From positions 64,001 to 128,000 of the forward strand of contig JAZUQR010000027.1 of NCBI GenBank assembly GCA_045605805.1: 64,000 nucleotides of DNA, in the 5' to 3' direction. This stretch comes from Alphaproteobacteria bacterium (GTDB taxonomy: Bacteria; Pseudomonadota; Alphaproteobacteria; CAAHEQ01; UBA3637). Shown here one piece after another: positions 1,592 to 44,302 of the stretch; the stretch's first letter is position 1, and each line of letters begins with the position of its first letter. A program made the position numbers and the translations under genes. The notes below the pieces were generated by a model. That model did no database searches. It saw only the letters and a list, made by a program, of their open reading frames with translations, and was not told where the DNA came from.

Positions 1592-2543
1592 GCAAATCCA
1601 AAAAGCAATTCAAGAATTATTACAACAAATTGATGCGACAACAAAGCCGGCAAACGAGGTTATCAATGCCTATACCCGCTCCAGAAGGTATATCGGCTCA
1701 AAAGACAGAAAAACCATCACACAAAGCGTTTGGAATACATTAAAACAACGCCCCACACCCGATTGGATAAAAAAACTTATCCCCCAAAAAGAACTGGACG
1801 CCATGCAAAGCGAAGCACAAACAATTTTACGAACCAACGGTAATCGGGAAGACATTCAACAAAAACTTAAAACAGAAGGCCTGAACACAACACCAACCCC
1901 ACTATCACCCATCGGATTGATTTTAGAAAAACGCACCAACCTTCAAACAAATCCCTCTTATCAAACAGGATTGATTGAAGTGCAAGATGAAGGCTCACAA
2001 TTGATTGCTTTGGCAACGAAGATTCAGCCCAACGACAGTGTGTTGGATTATTGTGCAGGGGCAGGTGGTAAATCCTTATGCTTTGCCCAAATGATGAACA
2101 ATCAAGGCAAAATAGTGGCACACGATATTTCAAAAATAAGCCTGAACGAACTTCACAAACGGGCCAAACGAGCAAACGCAACACTGATAACAACTACCTT
2201 AAAACCATCAGGATTATTTGACCATGTGGTGGTGGATGCCCCCTGTTCCGGCTCTGGCACATGGCGCAGAAATCCGGACGGTCGCTTAAAATTGACACAA
2301 GAACAATTGAAAAAGATCATTAAAACCCAACAAATGATTTTGGAACAAGCCTGTCAATTGGTGAAAATAGGCGGAAAATTGCATTATATGACTTGCTCGG
2401 TGATAGAACAAGAAAACCAAAAACAAGCCCAATGGTTTGTGAAAAAATATCCAACCTTTCAATTAAAACATCACCAACAATGGACACCGGCCACAACAAA
2501 CACCGATGGGTTCTTTTTGGCCACCTTTGAAAAAATAAAATAA
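1581..2543 (+). CDS. RsmB/NOP family RNA m5C methyltransferase
   Basis: VQDEGSQL, DYCAGAGGK, VDAPCSGSGTWRRNPD, YMTCS, TDGFF; ATG 1581 overlaps the end of rlmE. Confidence 0.9.
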   Translation: MKIEQIQKAIQELLQQIDATTKPANEVINAYTRSRRYIGSKDRKTITQSVWNTLKQRPTPDWIKKLIPQKELDAMQSEAQTILRTNGNREDIQQKLKTEGLNTTPTPLSPIGLILEKRTNLQTNPSYQTGLIEVQDEGSQLIALATKIQPNDSVLDYCAGAGGKSLCFAQMMNNQGKIVAHDISKISLNELHKRAKRANATLITTTLKPSGLFDHVVVDAPCSGSGTWRRNPDGRLKLTQEQLKKIIKTQQMILEQACQLVKIGGKLHYMTCSVIEQENQKQAQWFVKKYPTFQLKHHQQWTPATTNTDGFFLATFEKIK

Positions 2544-2566
2544 GCCGCCTTGATTAAGACGACTTA
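2541..2566 (-). terminator. Terminator between convergent genes (reads best on the - strand)
   Basis: On - strand: TAAGTCGTCTT-AATC-AAGGCGGCTTA hairpin with G-U pairs, followed by a T-rich tract. Confidence 0.55.
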
Positions 2567-2589
2567 TTTATAAGGTTTAGCTTAAATCG

Positions 2590-3597
2590 TTAAAACACAG
2601 CCTTCACAACCGCAGATGCCCCATACATGTGCATTGGTTCACTAAACGGTTTGCGTGCATTCAATTGAAGCCCAAGCACAAGGTTTTTGTACGGATAAAC
2701 ATCCAACCCCACATTCCATTGAGCATTAGACCCTTCAGATTTTTGGACGTTAAAGTCAATAGCATACCACTTGCTTGGTTGGATATACAGCCCTGGATTG
2801 TAATAATAACCATGCTCATCCACCCAATCTTTTTCTGTATGACTTGGATCAATAAAGGTTTTGGTATGATCATAAGTGTATGAAGCCGTTAAATAACCCG
2901 TGAACCACCCCCAAGTAGACCCAATAGTAGCCGTTGGTGCCCACGACCAACCAGTCACCCGTTCCACTCGTGAGCCATGTTTGGTTTTTTCACGATGCCA
3001 TGTTCCATCCACCCCAACAAACAAATCAAAATGGCAATAATCCGCCAAATGATAGTTAGTACTGACAGTCACATCATACCCGCTTAAATGCGGCACAGGG
3101 CGTCCCTCTGCAGCCACATATTGATCTGTCTTTGGTGTTGTATATTTCTTACCGCCAAAGGCCTGAATTGTCCAACGATCGGTAATACCATAGGCCATAC
3201 GCATATAGGCCTGCCAACCACGATATTCACCTATATCAATTGGGCCGATTGCATCTTGCCCGATCTTGCGTTTAGGTTCCTTAAACACCCCAGCCACTTC
3301 TTGTGCCGAAATCTGACCTTTTTTCAACACAAACAAGGGGTTGCGAATCCCCAATTCATGATTGCTTTTGCACGAACTTTTTGCCTCTTTCTTCACAGGA
3401 GCCACAGTCTGAGCGCACGCCTCACACAAAGGTTTTGGTTCTGGAACAGTTGTACTTGTATATGAAGTTGTCCGACAACTTGTACAAGCCGGCACTTGAT
3501 ATTGAACCGTTGTGGTTTTAACAGTACCAACTTCCTGAGCCTGTGCCATCACAGAAACACCCATCAAAGCCGAAGTAAATAAGAACATTGTTTTCAT
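2590..3597 (-). CDS. Putative outer-membrane beta-barrel protein with Cys-rich N-terminal region
   Basis: Signal peptide (MKTMFLF...AQA), CTSC/CEAC motifs, alternating aromatic beta-strands, C-terminal Phe (VVKAVF); start could be 3633. Confidence 0.6.
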   Translation of the reverse strand: MKTMFLFTSALMGVSVMAQAQEVGTVKTTTVQYQVPACTSCRTTSYTSTTVPEPKPLCEACAQTVAPVKKEAKSSCKSNHELGIRNPLFVLKKGQISAQEVAGVFKEPKRKIGQDAIGPIDIGEYRGWQAYMRMAYGITDRWTIQAFGGKKYTTPKTDQYVAAEGRPVPHLSGYDVTVSTNYHLADYCHFDLFVGVDGTWHREKTKHGSRVERVTGWSWAPTATIGSTWGWFTGYLTASYTYDHTKTFIDPSHTEKDWVDEHGYYYNPGLYIQPSKWYAIDFNVQKSEGSNAQWNVGLDVYPYKNLVLGLQLNARKPFSEPMHMYGASAVVKAVF

Positions 3598-3668
3598 AAA
3601 AAATCCTTTCCCCAAATTAAACATTATCTTCATTGTACACTTTTTTGAAAAATAGGCAAGCCCTTATA

Positions 3669-5435
3669 TCACTTTTTTTTATTTTTTTTGAACGAAGCAA
3701 ATAAAGTCTTTTTTTTAACGCCTGCCGGATCCACATCTACACCAACACCCGTCACAATACCATCTGTAATTTCATGAACAACCAATTGCACAGAATCCAA
3801 AGTCAAACGGTCACCTACATCCACATCATCAAACTCTTGTTCAAACAATTCAGCCACCGAATAATCACGAATCCCTTTATCCACAGTCAGCCCATACATC
3901 CATTCCAATTCGGAAAAAGTTGTTGTGGGAGCAATGGGAAAATCACCCAACGGTTTGTTTTGTCCAATACTTCCGCCACCAAAGAAATGGTCCAACAACG
4001 GCCGTTGCAATTCTGAAGAAACAAAAATATAAACTTTATCTCCCTTTTTGAATTGGCGCAAGCGAGCACCTGAGGGATAAGAAATCCCATTACGCACCAC
4101 CAATGTGGGTTTTGCCCATTTGGGCAAGCGTTCGCCACAAACCACAGGCGTTGTGTCTGTCAATTCATACAACACCAAAGAACTGTCTGTTAAATCCGGC
4201 AAATCAATTTCTGTTTTCACAGGGTCCTTTTCCAATTGAGGCAAGGTGACACCACACCAAGCCCCCACCATCGGCAAAGCAAACCCTTGCACAGCCAAAC
4301 TGATTAAAACCATCACAAAGATAATGTTAAAAATCTCATCGGCATAGGGCAAACCAAACACCATCGGAATCAAGGCCAACAAAATGCTTGTTGCCCCCCG
4401 CAACCCAACAAAAGCAATAAAAACCTTTTCTCCAAAACGATAGGCCTTAAATGGATATAACAAAATAAACACCATCAACGGCCGAGCTAAAAACATCAAA
4501 AAAACCGAAATAGCAAAAGCAGGTGCCCACACCTCAACCAATGCAGAAAAACTGACAAACAACCCTAAAATCACAAACATACTGATTTGGCTAAGCCATG
4601 TAAAAGTTTGTTGAAACTTGGAAATCTGGGCATAGGCTTGAATCCGACTGTTGCCCACCAACAAACCAGCAATGTATAAGGTTAAAAACCCACTGCCGCC
4701 CATCAAGTTGGAAACACCAAATCCAACCAAAGCCAATCCCAACACAAAAATCGGATACAAGGCTGCTTCCAAACGAAACCGATTGACCAAAAAATGAATC
4801 ACAGAACTCAATAAAAATCCAACGCCAGCCCCCACCAAAGCCTGAGTTGCAAACGAAGAAAAAATCATAGCCAACGAAACAGCCCCACCTTTCAAACTGT
4901 GTTGAAACAAAAGGGCAAAAGTCAAAGTCATAAAAATGGCCATAGGGTCATTTGTTCCTGATTCAATTTCCAAAGTAGATTTAACTCTGTCTTTCAAAGA
5001 AAGCCCTTTGGAACGCAATAAAAAGAACACAGCGGCGGAATCGGTTGAACTGATGATAGAGACAAGCAACAGAGCACTCAACCAAGAATAATCCATAAGC
5101 CAGATAACTAACGGCGCCAAAAACAAAGCAGTCAAGGCCACTCCAACAGTAGATAAAACAATAGACGGCCCCGCATCTTCCCGATAGTTTTTCATGGGAG
5201 TATGAAAACCACTGTCAAATAAAATCATCGCCAAAGCCACCGACCCAATAAAAAAGATAATTTTTGGATGTTGTAAAGATTGCAACACCTCAAAATTGCC
5301 TGCACCCACGCTTAAACCAATACACAAAAACAACAAAATCAATGGCACACCCATACGGGAAGACAATAAACTTGTTAAAATGCTTATTGTCAACAAAAGG
5401 CCCGCCAATAAAATCGGAAGATTTATAAAATCCAT
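3669..5435 (-). CDS. cvrA: K+/H+ antiporter NhaP2/CvrA (CPA1) with C-terminal RCK-C and CorC-like domains
   Basis: SSTDSAAVF, LEIESGTNDPMA, GGSGFL, GLRGA, many TM helices. Confidence 0.9.
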   Translation of the reverse strand: MDFINLPILLAGLLLTISILTSLLSSRMGVPLILLFLCIGLSVGAGNFEVLQSLQHPKIIFFIGSVALAMILFDSGFHTPMKNYREDAGPSIVLSTVGVALTALFLAPLVIWLMDYSWLSALLLVSIISSTDSAAVFFLLRSKGLSLKDRVKSTLEIESGTNDPMAIFMTLTFALLFQHSLKGGAVSLAMIFSSFATQALVGAGVGFLLSSVIHFLVNRFRLEAALYPIFVLGLALVGFGVSNLMGGSGFLTLYIAGLLVGNSRIQAYAQISKFQQTFTWLSQISMFVILGLFVSFSALVEVWAPAFAISVFLMFLARPLMVFILLYPFKAYRFGEKVFIAFVGLRGATSILLALIPMVFGLPYADEIFNIIFVMVLISLAVQGFALPMVGAWCGVTLPQLEKDPVKTEIDLPDLTDSSLVLYELTDTTPVVCGERLPKWAKPTLVVRNGISYPSGARLRQFKKGDKVYIFVSSELQRPLLDHFFGGGSIGQNKPLGDFPIAPTTTFSELEWMYGLTVDKGIRDYSVAELFEQEFDDVDVGDRLTLDSVQLVVHEITDGIVTGVGVDVDPAGVKKKTLFASFKKNKKK

Positions 5436-5440
5436 AAAAC

Positions 5441-6460
5441 CTATTTCCTTGTCTGTTTCATCCGAGCTTTCAGTTGTTCAAGTTTATGGCTTGCCAGTGC
5501 AGTATCACGGCTGGTTGTTGATAAACGGTCATACATCCGTTGGATTTCCTTGTTCAAATAAGCCGTTTCAATTTTCTGGGTCAAGGTGCGTTTTGCAACC
5601 ACATCTCTTCCCTTAAAAATACGATCTTTTTTGGCCAAAATAGCCCGCACAGTTTCAGACGCATGAGTCCGTCTTTGTTCAATCACATAAGGTAAATCAT
5701 GCACAATGCGTCCCACAACTTCTGCCGCATGTTTTTTGTCCCGAATACGATTACGATAAGCCGAAATCATCCCAAAAGCCACTTCCATTTCAAAGACATC
5801 ATCCACAACAATAAAGGGCATCTGGTCCGCAAAGCCTTTAATGTTGATATCCTTCAAGTATTCCAACAAGTGATGGAAAAAACCGCCCACATTAAACAAA
5901 ATAAACGGTTTTGGTTCCAACAACCCATCTTGCATGGCAATACAATCATAAACAAGTTCATCCAAAGTTCCCAACCCCCCTGGGGCAAACACAACAAAAT
6001 CCGCCCCCAAAAGATGTTGTTTTCTTTCTTCCAAAGTATGGGAAACAATCACATCTGTCAATTCGTTCAAAACAGAATCATCATCGGGATAAAGGCGCTG
6101 ATAATGTTCTGTTGTAATGCCTTGAATCGGTTTAGCAATTTTTTTGTCTTTTTTGTGCCACACTTCCAAAACGCCTTGGGCCACAGCCCCCATAATCCCT
6201 CGGGAAGACAAACCAAAAGTCAATTGGTAATTTCGCCGACCAATAGCCTTACCAAGTAAAAACGCCTGTTCCACATACTCAGGATTATTACCGGAACGGG
6301 AACCACCCGCCACAAAAACCCGAATGGTTGTTTCATTTTTATCCAACTTAAAGTTTTCCGAATATTCAACAACCAAGGCCTTTTTTTGAGGCTTAAAATG
6401 TTGTGCTTTTCTGTCATGTTTGCCACTTTTGGAAAGGGCGGACTTATAATGTTTTGTCAT
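5441..6460 (-). CDS. LOG/SLOG-family nucleotide phosphoribohydrolase with C-terminal helical extension
   Basis: GIMGAVAQG, EERK, PGGLGTLDE (PGGxGTxxE), KPFILFNVGGFF. Confidence 0.8.
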   Translation of the reverse strand: MTKHYKSALSKSGKHDRKAQHFKPQKKALVVEYSENFKLDKNETTIRVFVAGGSRSGNNPEYVEQAFLLGKAIGRRNYQLTFGLSSRGIMGAVAQGVLEVWHKKDKKIAKPIQGITTEHYQRLYPDDDSVLNELTDVIVSHTLEERKQHLLGADFVVFAPGGLGTLDELVYDCIAMQDGLLEPKPFILFNVGGFFHHLLEYLKDINIKGFADQMPFIVVDDVFEMEVAFGMISAYRNRIRDKKHAAEVVGRIVHDLPYVIEQRRTHASETVRAILAKKDRIFKGRDVVAKRTLTQKIETAYLNKEIQRMYDRLSTTSRDTALASHKLEQLKARMKQTRK

Positions 6461-40016: not shown

Positions 40017-40166
40017 ATGAAATACTATCAAAAAAGACGCCACCTTATCAGCAAAATGATTGCGGGAATCATCCTATTCTTCATCCTCTTTTTTGCCTTG
40101 TGTGATTGTACCCCGAAAGCAACCACGACACAAACCACCATCACCTTTGAAAGAAATGGGTCATGA
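40017..40166 (+). CDS. Small single-TM protein upstream of xerD
   Basis: SD AAGGAG, ATG 40017, one hydrophobic helix, ATGA overlap with xerD. Confidence 0.6.
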   Translation: MKYYQKRRHLISKMIAGIILFFILFFALCDCTPKATTTQTTITFERNGS

Positions 40167-41068
40167 TACCCAAAGAAATTGATGTTTTTTTACAAATGCA
40201 AACAGCCGAATGTGGGGCATCACCCAACACAATTTCAGCATACAAACATGATTTGGAATCGCTTCATGCATTTTTACAAACACACCATAATTCCTTAACA
40301 AGCGCCACAAGTCAAGATCTTAAAGAATATATTGATGATTTAAGTCAACACCACTATTCGCCCAAAACACAAGCCCGTCGCCTGTCCAGTATGCGAGAGT
40401 TTTATAAGTTTCTGTTTTCCGAAAAAACCATCAAATCCAATCCCACCGACTATCTGCACAGCCCCAAAACACAAAAACCATTACCCAAATACCTCAGCGA
40501 AGAAGATATTTTTACACTAATTGCCAATGGGGATAAAATCAACCACCGTCTGTCCACATTATTGGAAGTTTTATACGCATCCGGTATGCGAGTCAGTGAA
40601 TTGGTCGGTCTGCCCATGTCGGCCGTTTCACAAGAAAATAAGCGTCTGTATATTACGGGGAAAGGACAAAAAGAACGCATTGTTCCCTTAAACGAAAAAG
40701 CCTGTGAAGCATTGGAAAAATGGATCTTAAAACGAGAACTTCTGTTTCCCCGAGCACAAAAAAATAAATGGCTGTTTCCAGCGGCATCAAAATCGGGCCA
40801 TTTAACACGAGGTGTTTTCTTCAAAGAATTAAAAAAATTGGCTGTATTGTGTGATATTGATCCAACAAAAGTATCACCCCATGTATTTCGTCACTCATTT
40901 GCCTCCCATTTAATTGCCCATGATGCCGATTTAAGGTCTGTGCAAAAACTTTTGGGCCACGCTGACATCGCCACCACAGAAATTTATACGCATATTTTAC
41001 CAAATAGATTAAAAAAGGTCATTGAAAAATCTCATCCTTTGTCGTATAATAACCAAAAGGATGAATAA
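40163..41068 (+). CDS. xerD: Tyrosine recombinase XerD
   Basis: LYASGMRVSEL, GKGQKERIVP, SPHVFRHSFASH, DLRSVQKLLGHADIATTEIYTH; divergent from aroK. Confidence 0.92.
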   Translation: MIPKEIDVFLQMQTAECGASPNTISAYKHDLESLHAFLQTHHNSLTSATSQDLKEYIDDLSQHHYSPKTQARRLSSMREFYKFLFSEKTIKSNPTDYLHSPKTQKPLPKYLSEEDIFTLIANGDKINHRLSTLLEVLYASGMRVSELVGLPMSAVSQENKRLYITGKGQKERIVPLNEKACEALEKWILKRELLFPRAQKNKWLFPAASKSGHLTRGVFFKELKKLAVLCDIDPTKVSPHVFRHSFASHLIAHDADLRSVQKLLGHADIATTEIYTHILPNRLKKVIEKSHPLSYNNQKDE

Positions 41069-44000
41069 ATGAAGATTATAGACAAATACATTTTTCGGCA
41101 AACATTGGTTGGCTATCTGACAATTTTAATCAGTTTAACCGTCTTGATATGGTTGACACAATCCCTGCGCATGGTGGATATGATTGTCACCAAAGGGGTT
41201 TCTGTGGGTATTTTTTTGGAAATGACCCTTTTGGTGCTGCCAAACTTTTTACAAATTTTATCCCCCTTAGCCTTGTTTGGGGTAGCCTTGTTTGTGTTTA
41301 TCCGCATGCAATCGGACAAAGAACTGATTGTCTTAAAGGCTGTTGGCATGAACGCCAAACAATTGATAAAACCCTTGTTTATGTTAGGTGGTTTTTTGGT
41401 TTTCTTTGGCTATTTGCTCACCTTATGGGTGATTCCCGCCTCATATGCCCAACTGCGCCAAATGAAATGGAAAATACAAAACAATCTGTCTCACCTTTTG
41501 TTGCAAGAAGGGCAATTCAGCTCGTTCAAAAACGGCATGACATTATACATTCGGGAGCGAGAAGATGCCGGCAAAGTCAAAGGCATTCTGGCACATGAAA
41601 TCAAAAAAGATAAAAAGTCTGTGCTTATTGCCGAAGAAGGCTCAATGATTCAAACCCCCGAAGGTATCAGTTTAACATTCAATAACGGCACCCGCCAAGA
41701 GTTTAATACAAAAACGAAAGAGTTTTCTATCTTAAAATTTGATAAGCATACCATGCTGTTTGAACATTCGGCAAACAAATCCAGCCGAAAAATAGACCCC
41801 CGTGAAATGCCCTTAAAACAACTTATCCAAGCCCAACCAAATCAAGTAAAAGATGGCCCAACCTATCGCAAATATAAGGTAGAAGCCTTCAAACGCCTAA
41901 CACAACCGCTGTACAATTTATTGTTTTTATGGTTGGCTGCCTTTGGTGTTTTAAGTGGTCATTATAACAGACGGGGTCAATCCCGCCAAATCAATGCTGT
42001 TGTCATTGCAGCTGTTTTAATTCAATCTTTATCATTGGCCTTTGAAAACATTGCCACACGCAACCTGTGGGGCATAAGTTTAATGGGATTCAACTTACTT
42101 ATGCCATTGGTAATTTTGTATTTTGTCTTATTCAAAGAACGCAAAATCGGTTGGATACATTTAATGTTGCTGCTCTCTTTAACAGGAATTGGGACAAACG
42201 CCTATGCCGGTCCGAAATTGGACTTACAAAATCATGATGCCAAGGCCCCTATTGATTTTGAAGCAGACAATATGGACTACAACATCAAAACAAACATTTT
42301 AACCGCATCAGGGAATGTGGTTTTAACACAAAATCAAATGAATGTGCAAACACCAAAAATTATATACAACCAAGATACAGACGAGGTAAAAATCCCGCAA
42401 AAAACAAAAATTACCTTGCCAGACGGCACAAAATCAACCGTTCAAAATATGATGCTATACCCCAAAAAATCGGAAGCAACAGCCAACACCATCACCAGCA
42501 TTTTAACAGACGATTCCCGCATCACAGCCGAACAAATGATAAGCACCCAGAAGGGCGATATTATTTTGTTGAAAAACGCCACATACACGCCTTGCGATAC
42601 ATGTGAAGCCAAAGCCCCCCTGTGGCAAATTGAAGCCAAAGAAGTGAAACAAGATTTCACAGACCATACCCTATCTTATAAACATATGTTTTTGGATATA
42701 AAAGATATCCCTGTGTTATACTTTCCTTACTTTCAAATGCCGGATGCAACCATCAAACGCAAATCAGGTTTTTTGAACCCCAGTATCCGCCATACAAGCG
42801 AAATGGGCCTGTCATTAGAAACACCTTTATTTGTGGATATAGCCGAAAATCAAAATCTGCTCATCACACCGGTGATTTCTGCCAAACACTTACCATTGGG
42901 GATTGTAAATTATAACGGCTTATTCACCAAAGGTATTCTGAATGTACAATTCAGCGGCACGCAAGATAAAGATAACGAAAACGAAGGTCACCTGAAAGCC
43001 AACTTTGAATATGATATGACACAAAACCTCCGTTTAACAGGGCAATACTTCCGCACGCTCAGCGACACCTATTTCCGCCGATATGATATTGAAGGCATCA
43101 ATGATTCAGATTCTTTTTTGCGTTCTTATTTAACCGCTGAATACTTTGGCACGAGATTTTATACAAAAGCAAAAACATGGCATTTTCAAAGTCTGTTAAA
43201 TGAAGTGAACAGCCGTTCGTTGCCTGTCATCATTCCAACTGTGGATATGCAGTACCACACCAAACCACTGTTTAATACCAATCTGTATGCCTTTACCAAC
43301 ATCAATACCGCCTTATATAACACCCGCAACCATTTCAAATCTAACCGTCTGTCTTTAACGCAAGGATTTACCCTTCCCTATACCACTTCGTTTGGGTTGG
43401 TCACCGAAACAAAAGCAAGCCTGCGTTTTGATGGCTATGTGATAGACAGTGGCAAAGACAATCTGGTTTCCAAACATCCGGAAGACACCTATAACAAAGG
43501 ACGCTTTACCCCTATATTCAGCACAAAAATCAGTTATCCCTTGTTCACTACAACAAAGCAAACAACTCAAGTTTTGGAACCCATTATTATGATGGTGATG
43601 TCCCCCAATACAAAGAACAGCCAAAACATTCCTAATTTAGACAGTACCGTCTTTAACTTTGACGATACCAACCTGTTTTCCGAAAACCGTTTTGCCGGCT
43701 ATGACCGCATAGAAACAGGCACACGCATCAACTATGGTTTGCAATGGACAGCCTATCAAAATGATGCCAAAGACAGATCTTTATCCATCTTATTTGGCCA
43801 ATCCTATCGCTTGAACGAATCGGAAGAATTAAAAGATGTGATGGGATACAGCCACCACCTGTCCGACTATGTGGGAAACATTCAATTAAACTATCAACAC
43901 CTGAATCTATACTATCGTTTCCGCTTAAATCGTGAAAACCTGTCCAAACGCAAAAATGACATTGGTTTTTCTGTGGGTGGCAACCCCTTGCGAGTTGGAC

Positions 44001-44302
44001 TAAATTATCTGTATCAAGGGGCATATACATTAGACAACAAACACTATGACGAAGAAAATGAAATTCGTTTTTGGGCGCAATCACAATTTCATAAAAACTG
44101 GCAAACAAGCGGTTATTACAGATACAACTTAAAAAAAGACGGAGGCCCTATTGAATATGGTGTTCAAATACGCTATGATAATGAATGTAGTGCCATCATA
44201 TTTAATTTGGAAAAATCCTATACCAAAGACAGAAACTATAAAGGAAGCACCTCGTTTATGATAAAAGTACTTTTGAAAACCTTAGGAGGAATCGGTCAGT
44301 GA
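41069..44302 (+). CDS. Fused LptF(/G) permease - LptD LPS-assembly protein (1077 aa)
   Basis: N-terminal ~355 aa: KYIFRQ, WLTQSLR, SDKELIVLKAVG, NGTRQ (LptF); C-terminal ~700 aa: FEAD, ASGNV, YTPCDTC..PLWQI, RKSGFL, NLFSENRFAGYDRIE, YDNEC, LKTLG (LptD); no stop between them. Confidence 0.9.
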   Translation: MKIIDKYIFRQTLVGYLTILISLTVLIWLTQSLRMVDMIVTKGVSVGIFLEMTLLVLPNFLQILSPLALFGVALFVFIRMQSDKELIVLKAVGMNAKQLIKPLFMLGGFLVFFGYLLTLWVIPASYAQLRQMKWKIQNNLSHLLLQEGQFSSFKNGMTLYIREREDAGKVKGILAHEIKKDKKSVLIAEEGSMIQTPEGISLTFNNGTRQEFNTKTKEFSILKFDKHTMLFEHSANKSSRKIDPREMPLKQLIQAQPNQVKDGPTYRKYKVEAFKRLTQPLYNLLFLWLAAFGVLSGHYNRRGQSRQINAVVIAAVLIQSLSLAFENIATRNLWGISLMGFNLLMPLVILYFVLFKERKIGWIHLMLLLSLTGIGTNAYAGPKLDLQNHDAKAPIDFEADNMDYNIKTNILTASGNVVLTQNQMNVQTPKIIYNQDTDEVKIPQKTKITLPDGTKSTVQNMMLYPKKSEATANTITSILTDDSRITAEQMISTQKGDIILLKNATYTPCDTCEAKAPLWQIEAKEVKQDFTDHTLSYKHMFLDIKDIPVLYFPYFQMPDATIKRKSGFLNPSIRHTSEMGLSLETPLFVDIAENQNLLITPVISAKHLPLGIVNYNGLFTKGILNVQFSGTQDKDNENEGHLKANFEYDMTQNLRLTGQYFRTLSDTYFRRYDIEGINDSDSFLRSYLTAEYFGTRFYTKAKTWHFQSLLNEVNSRSLPVIIPTVDMQYHTKPLFNTNLYAFTNINTALYNTRNHFKSNRLSLTQGFTLPYTTSFGLVTETKASLRFDGYVIDSGKDNLVSKHPEDTYNKGRFTPIFSTKISYPLFTTTKQTTQVLEPIIMMVMSPNTKNSQNIPNLDSTVFNFDDTNLFSENRFAGYDRIETGTRINYGLQWTAYQNDAKDRSLSILFGQSYRLNESEELKDVMGYSHHLSDYVGNIQLNYQHLNLYYRFRLNRENLSKRKNDIGFSVGGNPLRVGLNYLYQGAYTLDNKHYDEENEIRFWAQSQFHKNWQTSGYYRYNLKKDGGPIEYGVQIRYDNECSAIIFNLEKSYTKDRNYKGSTSFMIKVLLKTLGGIGQ

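Follow-up and report, generated by a model that had tools for sequence, protein, structure and literature searches.

A fused lptF-lptD gene with an internal signal-peptide-like junction is conserved across an order of gut Alphaproteobacteria

The lipopolysaccharide (LPS) bridge of the Lpt machine, a set of seven proteins, has LptF at one end and LptD at the other, each in a different membrane. In the model organisms known to us they are encoded by separate genes. In the stretch of DNA analysed here (the window; 64,000 nucleotides of contig JAZUQR010000027.1, from an alphaproteobacterial host genome of 1.21 Mb that is 98.85% complete), both proteins are encoded by one open reading frame (ORF), lptF-lptD (Table 1). 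A preliminary description of this DNA, made from its letters alone, had reported a single open frame holding LptF, a signal-peptide-like segment and a complete LptD, and the ORF listing together with searches using Pfam and NCBIfam models bore this out. The Pfam family PF03739 (LptF_LptG) matched residues 6-351 (E 1.3e-65, 222.2 bits, cut-off 27.9) over profile positions 1-349 of 353, and the NCBIfam model for LptF, TIGR04407, scored 233.2 bits (cut-off 230), whereas the LptG model reached only 87.4 bits. Downstream in the same frame, the N-terminal domain of LptD was recognised by PF03968 (LptD_N; residues 398-529, E 9.6e-8, 32.7 bits, cut-off 20.4) and the barrel by PF04453 (residues 648-1011, E 4e-46, 158.5 bits, cut-off 22.4). 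The NCBIfam equivalog for LptD, NF002997, gave 155.7 bits and did not reach its cut-off of 683, a score for which unfused alphaproteobacterial LptDs were not compared; we read it as divergence, not as non-membership in the LptD family. Sequence matches to chains of known structure covered both modules, with LptF chains such as 6mhu_F and 6s8g_F aligned over residues 3-237, and the LptD chains 8h1r_A, 5iv9_A and 4n4r_A.

The modules were also modelled with AlphaFold2 from an alignment of 21 database proteins of 41-73% identity (alignment A1), giving a mean predicted local distance difference test score (pLDDT) of 72.3 and a predicted template modelling score of 0.43. The model places helices of the LptF part at residues 2-42, 46-82, 96-140, 263-296, 304-331 and 335-355, with strands at residues 150-231, and beta-strands throughout residues 396-1068 of the LptD part. 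The predicted LptF topology has transmembrane helices (TM) 1-3, a beta-jellyroll at residues 150-231 and TM4-6 ending at about residue 355; this agrees with the earlier expectation of a six-TM LptF whose end lies in the cytoplasm. C509 and C1040 are invariant in alignment A1. Both modules are ordinary, complete members of the LptF and LptD families, and it is the architecture of the gene that is new.

The segment joining the modules has the make-up given in the preliminary description, basic residues followed by a hydrophobic core and an Ala-Tyr-Ala motif ending at Ala380. An alignment of 22 family members shows a linker of variable sequence and length that never breaks the frame; in each of them it carries a basic stretch, then a hydrophobic core, and has small residues at both -3 and -1. 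In alignment A1, Ala380, the predicted -1 residue, is the sole invariant column between P346 and P394. We applied a (-3,-1) rule of our own for cleavage sites to 81 unique fusions, aligned over residues 271-520 only. Every one of the 81 has a (-3,-1) site at the junction; the -1 residue is Ala in 79, and the net charge of the n-region is +2 or more, again in 79. The N-terminal regions of unfused LptDs, used as a control, pass the same rule in 119 of 123 cases, with Ala at -1 in 114 of these 119, whereas Ala stands at -1 in just 6-44 of 81 cases for TM1-6 of LptF. The stretch free of charged residues that ends at -1 has a median length of 16 at the junction and 14 in unfused LptD signal peptides. 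A lipoprotein-type signal was considered and rejected, as the junction alignments contain no conserved Cys after the site. In the AlphaFold2 model residues 357-389 have pLDDT below 50, contain only an 11-residue helix (residues 362-372) and pack in neither module. The host genome encodes a signal peptidase I on contig C24 (TIGR02227, 159.3 bits, cut-off 47). By these sequence features the junction resembles a genuine signal peptide. Its location is unusual, since the putative signal peptide occupies residues 356-380 of 1077, behind six TM helices, and not the N-terminus of the precursor.

The host belongs to an order of small-genome gut Alphaproteobacteria, from which 80 genomes were examined, all of them metagenome-assembled genomes (MAGs) of one family and 16 genera. 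The order may correspond to RF32 of GTDB. A search with the junction-spanning residues 250-520 matched 78 of the 80, and in 75 a single match runs over the junction. The remainder comprises one genome in which the two genes are split (G010), two in which the locus is broken at contig ends (G006 and G060) and two without a match (G049 and G062). In G006 both contig ends are open frames, compatible with fusion; in G049 (98% complete) and G062 (75% complete) neither the LptF nor the LptD module was matched. A full-length search of 41 relatives found a frame of 1077-1101 amino acids, at 43-71% identity, in 22 of the 25 family genomes included. Of 16 genomes from other families of the class, 14 were matched, and there lptF and lptD were always separate matches. 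The 75 genomes retain the frame even where identity falls to about 35-43%. The possibility, raised beforehand, that relatives keep separate genes thus fails within the order and holds only for the outgroups and for G010. Fused frames are also present in public MAGs: 41 of 75 loci from a scan with alignment A1 carry a frame of 1071-1100 amino acids, and most titles of the records with the fused frame point to rumen or other ruminant gut, or to other animal and human gut sources. Public annotation calls such proteins only 'LptF' or only 'LptD'. We take this to be a genuine, selected gene fusion.

In six members of the order (G008, G090, G074, G066, G065 and G068) the junction is intact and the frame is cut or shifted farther downstream. 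The frameshifts in the LptD part lie near residue 879 in G008 (L009/L042) and between residues 430 and 459 in G090 (contig C79); these could be sequencing errors or decay.

Comparison with other Alphaproteobacteria indicates how the gene may have arisen. Most outgroup loci examined have the order lptF-lptG-lptD(-surA), as had been stated for the class, and the window differs in that lptG is missing from its usual place between lptF and lptD, a point noted earlier that proved correct: the gene is relocated in the genome and not absent. In several unfused outgroup loci lptF is followed directly by lptD (G026/L033, L080, L084, L087, L089 from Haematospirillum, and L110). Two of them, L033 and L080, share the order xerD-lptF-lptD-surA with the window, and in L033 lptD starts within a few bases of the lptF stop. 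The fusion would have originated when lptG moved off and left lptF and lptD abutting, as in these outgroups, with loss of the lptF stop as the next step. G010 (L030, contig C6), the one member of the order with split genes, lies within a fused genus. Its lptF stop overlaps the lptD ATG by four bases, an AGGAG-type string resembling a Shine-Dalgarno (SD) sequence precedes this ATG, and the same signal peptide follows it. The split may be a reversion or an assembly error; it suggests that the two proteins need not be covalently joined, which would be expected of a fusion that is cleaved in any case.

We built a FastTree phylogeny of 53 LptD domains (last 690 residues, midpoint-rooted) from a chosen subset of 22 of the 81 fusions, five adjacent-unfused loci, 13 separate loci and 13 database proteins. 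Twenty fusions of the order type form one clade with support 1.0 and no unfused member inside. A library of 1.84 billion proteins yielded two divergent LptF and LptD fusions, each with its own signal-peptide-like linker: P0040 (1103 amino acids, 33% identity), which pairs with an unfused LptD (support 0.999), and P0058 (1175 amino acids, 29% identity), which pairs with the adjacent-unfused locus L110 (support 0.998). This single-gene tree, drawn with no species tree beside it, tentatively suggests that the LptF-LptD fusion arose up to three times. Two further candidates, L088 (1129 amino acids) and L105 (1166 amino acids) from outgroup MAGs of high G+C content, were rejected as fusions, their frames lying in a third reading frame alongside LptF and LptD frames that are themselves separate. 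In another locus, L035 (G030), lptG and lptD share a reading frame and give an apparent frame of 1652 amino acids, with one stop codon between them (frames 2265-3701 and 3705-5846).

We consider it probable that LptF-LptD is a polyprotein which is cut by signal peptidase I to release LptD. The LptF part would insert in the inner membrane with its six TM helices, its jellyroll between TM3 and TM4 in the periplasm and its end in the cytoplasm. The basic stretch after TM6 would remain cytoplasmic, and the short hydrophobic core (about residues 360-376) would re-engage Sec as an N-in/C-out internal signal peptide. Because the jellyroll between TM3 and TM4 is periplasmic, TM6 should end in the cytoplasm, and the basic stretch and the N-in/C-out core would then fit the topology needed for LptD export. 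Signal peptidase I would cleave after Ala380; LptD would depart for the outer membrane, with a SurA-like gene encoded immediately downstream, and LptF would be left with the signal peptide at its C-terminus, a short seventh segment in the membrane. The final proteins would be the same as those of separate genes and would be made obligatorily in a 1:1 ratio. A polyprotein with a seventh segment cut after Ala380 had been put forward in the preliminary description, and the proposal is supported by the order-wide frame, the invariant -1 Ala, the n-, h- and c-region architecture in 81 of 81 fusions, the signal peptidase I gene and the lack of a conserved internal start.

Several points weigh against cleavage or lessen the force of the evidence for it. 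Cleavage, and with it the 1:1 release of LptF and LptD, is deduced from sequence features only. Our (-3,-1) rule is crude and permissive and favours Ala, and LptF TM1-6 satisfy the bare rule in 24-81 of 81 cases. Related genomes are non-independent samples. The split in G010 is seen in a single MAG of 78% completeness, and one base within an A-rich run is all that sets it apart from a fused frame. At least one in-frame start-like codon is present near the n-region in 18 of 22 fused genes, and in these 18 a minor, independently translated LptD may be made. Among the 22 sequencing runs listed, none is on record as RNA. Finally, the outer-membrane half of the Lpt machine is not fully accounted for, LptE being without a match to PF04390.

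The start-like codons bear on the alternative that the fused frame is incidental and that functional LptD comes mainly from an internal start at the junction, in the form of an ordinary precursor that carries an N-terminal signal peptide of its own. In the 22 fused genes we examined every in-frame ATG, GTG and TTG located between the TM6 end and a point 12 residues ahead of the site. Codons of this kind in the 18 genes could serve as starts; SD-like strings formed by purine-rich Lys and Glu codons precede some of them (for example -7.9 kcal/mol in G004), and G010 uses such an ATG behind its AGGAG-type string. Against this, the scanned junction contains no start codon in four of the 22 (G009, G012, G016 and G017), and neither the position nor the type of codon is conserved in the other 18. 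Pairing with the anti-SD sequence at -5 kcal/mol or better was found for 7 of 43 candidate starts, compared with 10.6% of 2045 other in-frame start-like codons, so SD strength is not clearly above background. In the window the ATG at 42164, earlier named as a possible start of LptD, pairs at -3.6 kcal/mol and lies within the hydrophobic core past the basic residues; a product started there would therefore lack the basic n-region, and promoter-like sites are not enriched in the region. Since there is no stop after lptF, ribosomes must read on into lptD, and the fused precursor would be made regardless. We regard mainly internal initiation as unlikely.

The second alternative is an uncleaved chain across the envelope, in which the segment serves permanently as a seventh TM helix and LptD remains tethered covalently to LptF. 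A fused frame conserved in 75 of 80 genomes would agree with such a chain, and so would a tendency of the same lineage to hard-wire the bridge, as seen in a second gene, a permanent lptC-lptA fusion. The lptC-lptA product has an N-terminal anchor, and no hydrophobic segment was noticed between its LptC and LptA matches. This fusion is present in 25 of 25 family genomes searched, with one near-full-length match in 23 and several matches in one open frame in G015 and G021, whereas in outgroups the LptC and LptA halves match separate frames. As both of its halves are periplasmic and no internal hydrophobic segment was noticed in it, the lineage seems to have kept a cleavable-looking signal only where a membrane must be crossed.

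The features of the LptF-LptD junction speak against a permanent tether. An invariant -1 Ala and a short uncharged run (median 16, like that of LptD signal peptides) would not be needed by a plain anchor, and the first jellyroll strand, at residue 396, follows the hydrophobic core after no more than about 15-20 residues. In published structures of the Lpt bridge the jellyrolls of LptF, LptC and LptA are stacked head to tail. With the lptC-lptA gene conserved, a linker of this length would be too short to place the LptD jellyroll beyond those stacked jellyrolls, and in G010 lptF and lptD are split. We therefore hold an uncleaved trans-envelope chain to be improbable. We also doubt that cleavage is slow or absent such that nascent LptD stays tethered to the LptB2FG(C-A) machine that feeds it, the bridge being formed from covalently pre-wired halves. 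If this were true, the fusion would mark the site in the envelope at which a new bridge is started and would couple inner- and outer-membrane assembly in space, beyond 1:1 dosage.

That a misassembly, a sequencing indel or a decayed pseudogene joined two genes is very improbable. All genomes are MAGs, and a few members are frameshifted elsewhere (G008 and G090, above), but Logan contigs of four runs from four studies span positions 42134-42208 with 0 gaps and with no indel or joint listed, one run possibly being the window's own source; the junction thereby withstood the check in independent sequence data that had been proposed for it. We reject an artefact because the contigs of the four studies agree, 75 of 80 genomes keep the frame and both modules score as complete. 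A homodimeric LptF permease without LptG, suggested by the lack of lptG between lptF and lptD, can be dismissed, since a 381-amino-acid LptG gene lies on contig C21 beside leuS and scores 227 bits with TIGR04408 against 72.9 with the LptF model.

The lptG gene adjoins leuS, on the opposite strand, on a contig other than that of the window, and second matches to the LptF/G family are found also in relatives. The genome search for lptG, lptA, lptB, lptC and lptE that had been called for was successful in part: lptG, lptB (364.8 bits, cut-off 240) and lptC-lptA were found, and PF04390, the LptE model, was without a match. In all, four Lpt genes were detected in the order (lptB, lptG, lptC-lptA and lptF-lptD). 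PF04390 gave no match at E <= 0.1 in the nearly complete host genome, and among 14 control genomes the same model matched just 3. The leuS gene is followed by lptE in many proteobacteria, but no lptE-like ORF is present beside leuS on contig C21. The lptC-lptA ORF sits between lptB and a 323-amino-acid ORF that is probably kdsD.

The neighbours of lptF-lptD are a gene for a xerD-type tyrosine recombinase upstream and a gene for a SurA-like chaperone downstream (Table 1). The lptF-lptD ATG comes immediately after the xerD stop, and xerD has the same place in the fused relatives and in those unfused outgroups whose lptF and lptD adjoin each other. The SurA-like gene has a GTG start that overlaps the lptF-lptD stop and is followed by folD. 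At the position of this gene, more distant members of the order have frames of about 390-430 amino acids, counted from stop to stop, and its peptidyl-prolyl isomerase part may have been lost in the subclade of the window. A scan of the region for promoter-like sites found 13, against 10.3 +/- 3.2 expected, and so no enrichment.

Table 1. Features of the lptF-lptD locus (window positions) and of the relocated or fused lpt genes elsewhere in the host genome (G000; contig and locus positions)
Feature	Position	Strand	Evidence or remark
Fused lptF-lptD ORF	41069..44302	+	ORF listing: single frame of 1077 aa (amino acids) plus stop, ATG start, 0 internal stops
LptF module	41069..42133 (aa 1-355)	+	PF03739, TIGR04407, AlphaFold2 helices and strands, PDB LptF chains
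Internal signal-peptide-like segment	42134..42208 (aa 356-380, 25 residues)	+	Sequence features; predicted signal peptidase I site 380/381
Predicted mature LptD	42209..44299 (aa 381-1077)	+	Pfam, PDB LptD chains, AlphaFold2 strands
LptD N-terminal beta-jellyroll	42260..42655 (aa 398-529)	+	Pfam LptD_N
LptD C-terminal beta-barrel	43010..44101 (aa 648-1011)	+	Pfam LptD
xerD-type tyrosine recombinase	40163..41068	+	Pfam/NCBIfam; upstream neighbour
Best sigma-70-like match (11/12)	41022..41050	+	Inside xerD 3' end, just upstream of lptF start; possible promoter; the match is not evidence of function
SurA-like chaperone gene, 296 aa	44299..45189	+	Only SurA N-terminal domain detected
lptG, 381 aa	G000:C21, locus L002:1477-2622	-	TIGR04408 227 bits (cut-off 240, just under; best family); LptF 72.9 bits
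lptC-lptA fusion, 342 aa	G000:C13, locus L017:1081-2109	-	LptC match aa 29-202; LptA match aa 218-338

Compared with the canonical, separate LptF and LptD (LptB2FG, 6mhu and 6s8g; LptD, 4n4r, 5iv9 and 8h1r), the fusion has the same module architecture, and LptB, LptG, LptC and LptA are encoded here as well. The differences are that the two modules form one ORF, that the predicted LptD signal peptide is internal and follows LptF TM6, that lptG is relocated, that lptC and lptA are fused and that PF04390 has no match. The nearest mechanistic precedent known to us is FbcH, a cytochrome b-c1 precursor from Bradyrhizobium japonicum attributed to Thony-Meyer and Hennecke (about 1989-1991), in which an alphaproteobacterial membrane protein ending in the cytoplasm is reportedly joined through an internal signal sequence to a periplasm-facing partner and processed to two proteins of one complex. 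The modelled LptF-LptD shows the FbcH layout, with a membrane module that ends in the cytoplasm, an internal signal and a periplasm-exposed module. Both FbcH products are said to stay in the inner membrane, whereas the predicted LptD goes to the outer membrane.

Other natural and man-made fusions resemble LptF-LptD less closely. PagP-LptD two-barrel fusions of Rhodocyclaceae are natural and are explained by the authors who describe them as serving pathway efficiency (bioRxiv 10.1101/2021.02.17.431615). PagP-LptD is like LptF-LptD a lineage-restricted natural fusion of LptD with another LPS-pathway protein; it differs in that both of its partners are barrels of the outer membrane that share a single N-terminal signal peptide, which poses no topology problem and needs no internal signal peptide. 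The polyproteins of flavi-, pesti- and bunyaviruses follow the same logic, with alternating membrane segments and internal signal peptides through which one translation product is divided at the far side of the membrane. They differ in that they are viral, and not part of a cellular housekeeping machine, and are processed in the eukaryotic endoplasmic reticulum by the host signal peptidase complex. An engineered fusion of the E. coli proteins LptC and LptA is reported to form a stable complex with LptB2FG and to support LPS transfer to LptD in vitro (bioRxiv 10.1101/2022.12.25.521893). That fusion is man-made, whereas the lptC-lptA fusion of the order is natural and conserved; it bears on lptC-lptA and not on the LptF-LptD junction. 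A literature search, with most subscription journals and supplements outside its reach, found no description of a natural LptF-LptD fusion.

A natural gene that throughout an order encodes LptF and LptD together, stays in frame across deep divergence and has an internal signal peptide of the cleavage type between them would be one of few cellular polyproteins in bacteria that signal peptidase divides, and we know of no other such polyprotein with products for two different membranes. The separately branching P0040 and P0058 suggest that fusions of this kind have arisen repeatedly. The finding raises the questions of whether stoichiometric or co-localised synthesis of LptF and LptD is important, whether LptF tolerates an extra C-terminal membrane segment and how far the Lpt machine can be compacted. 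In practice, pathway reconstructions of gut MAGs may score LptF or LptD as missing because the annotation names only one of the two. One gene for an inner- and an outer-membrane Lpt protein throughout an order, together with a second natural fusion, LptC-LptA, would surprise a specialist.

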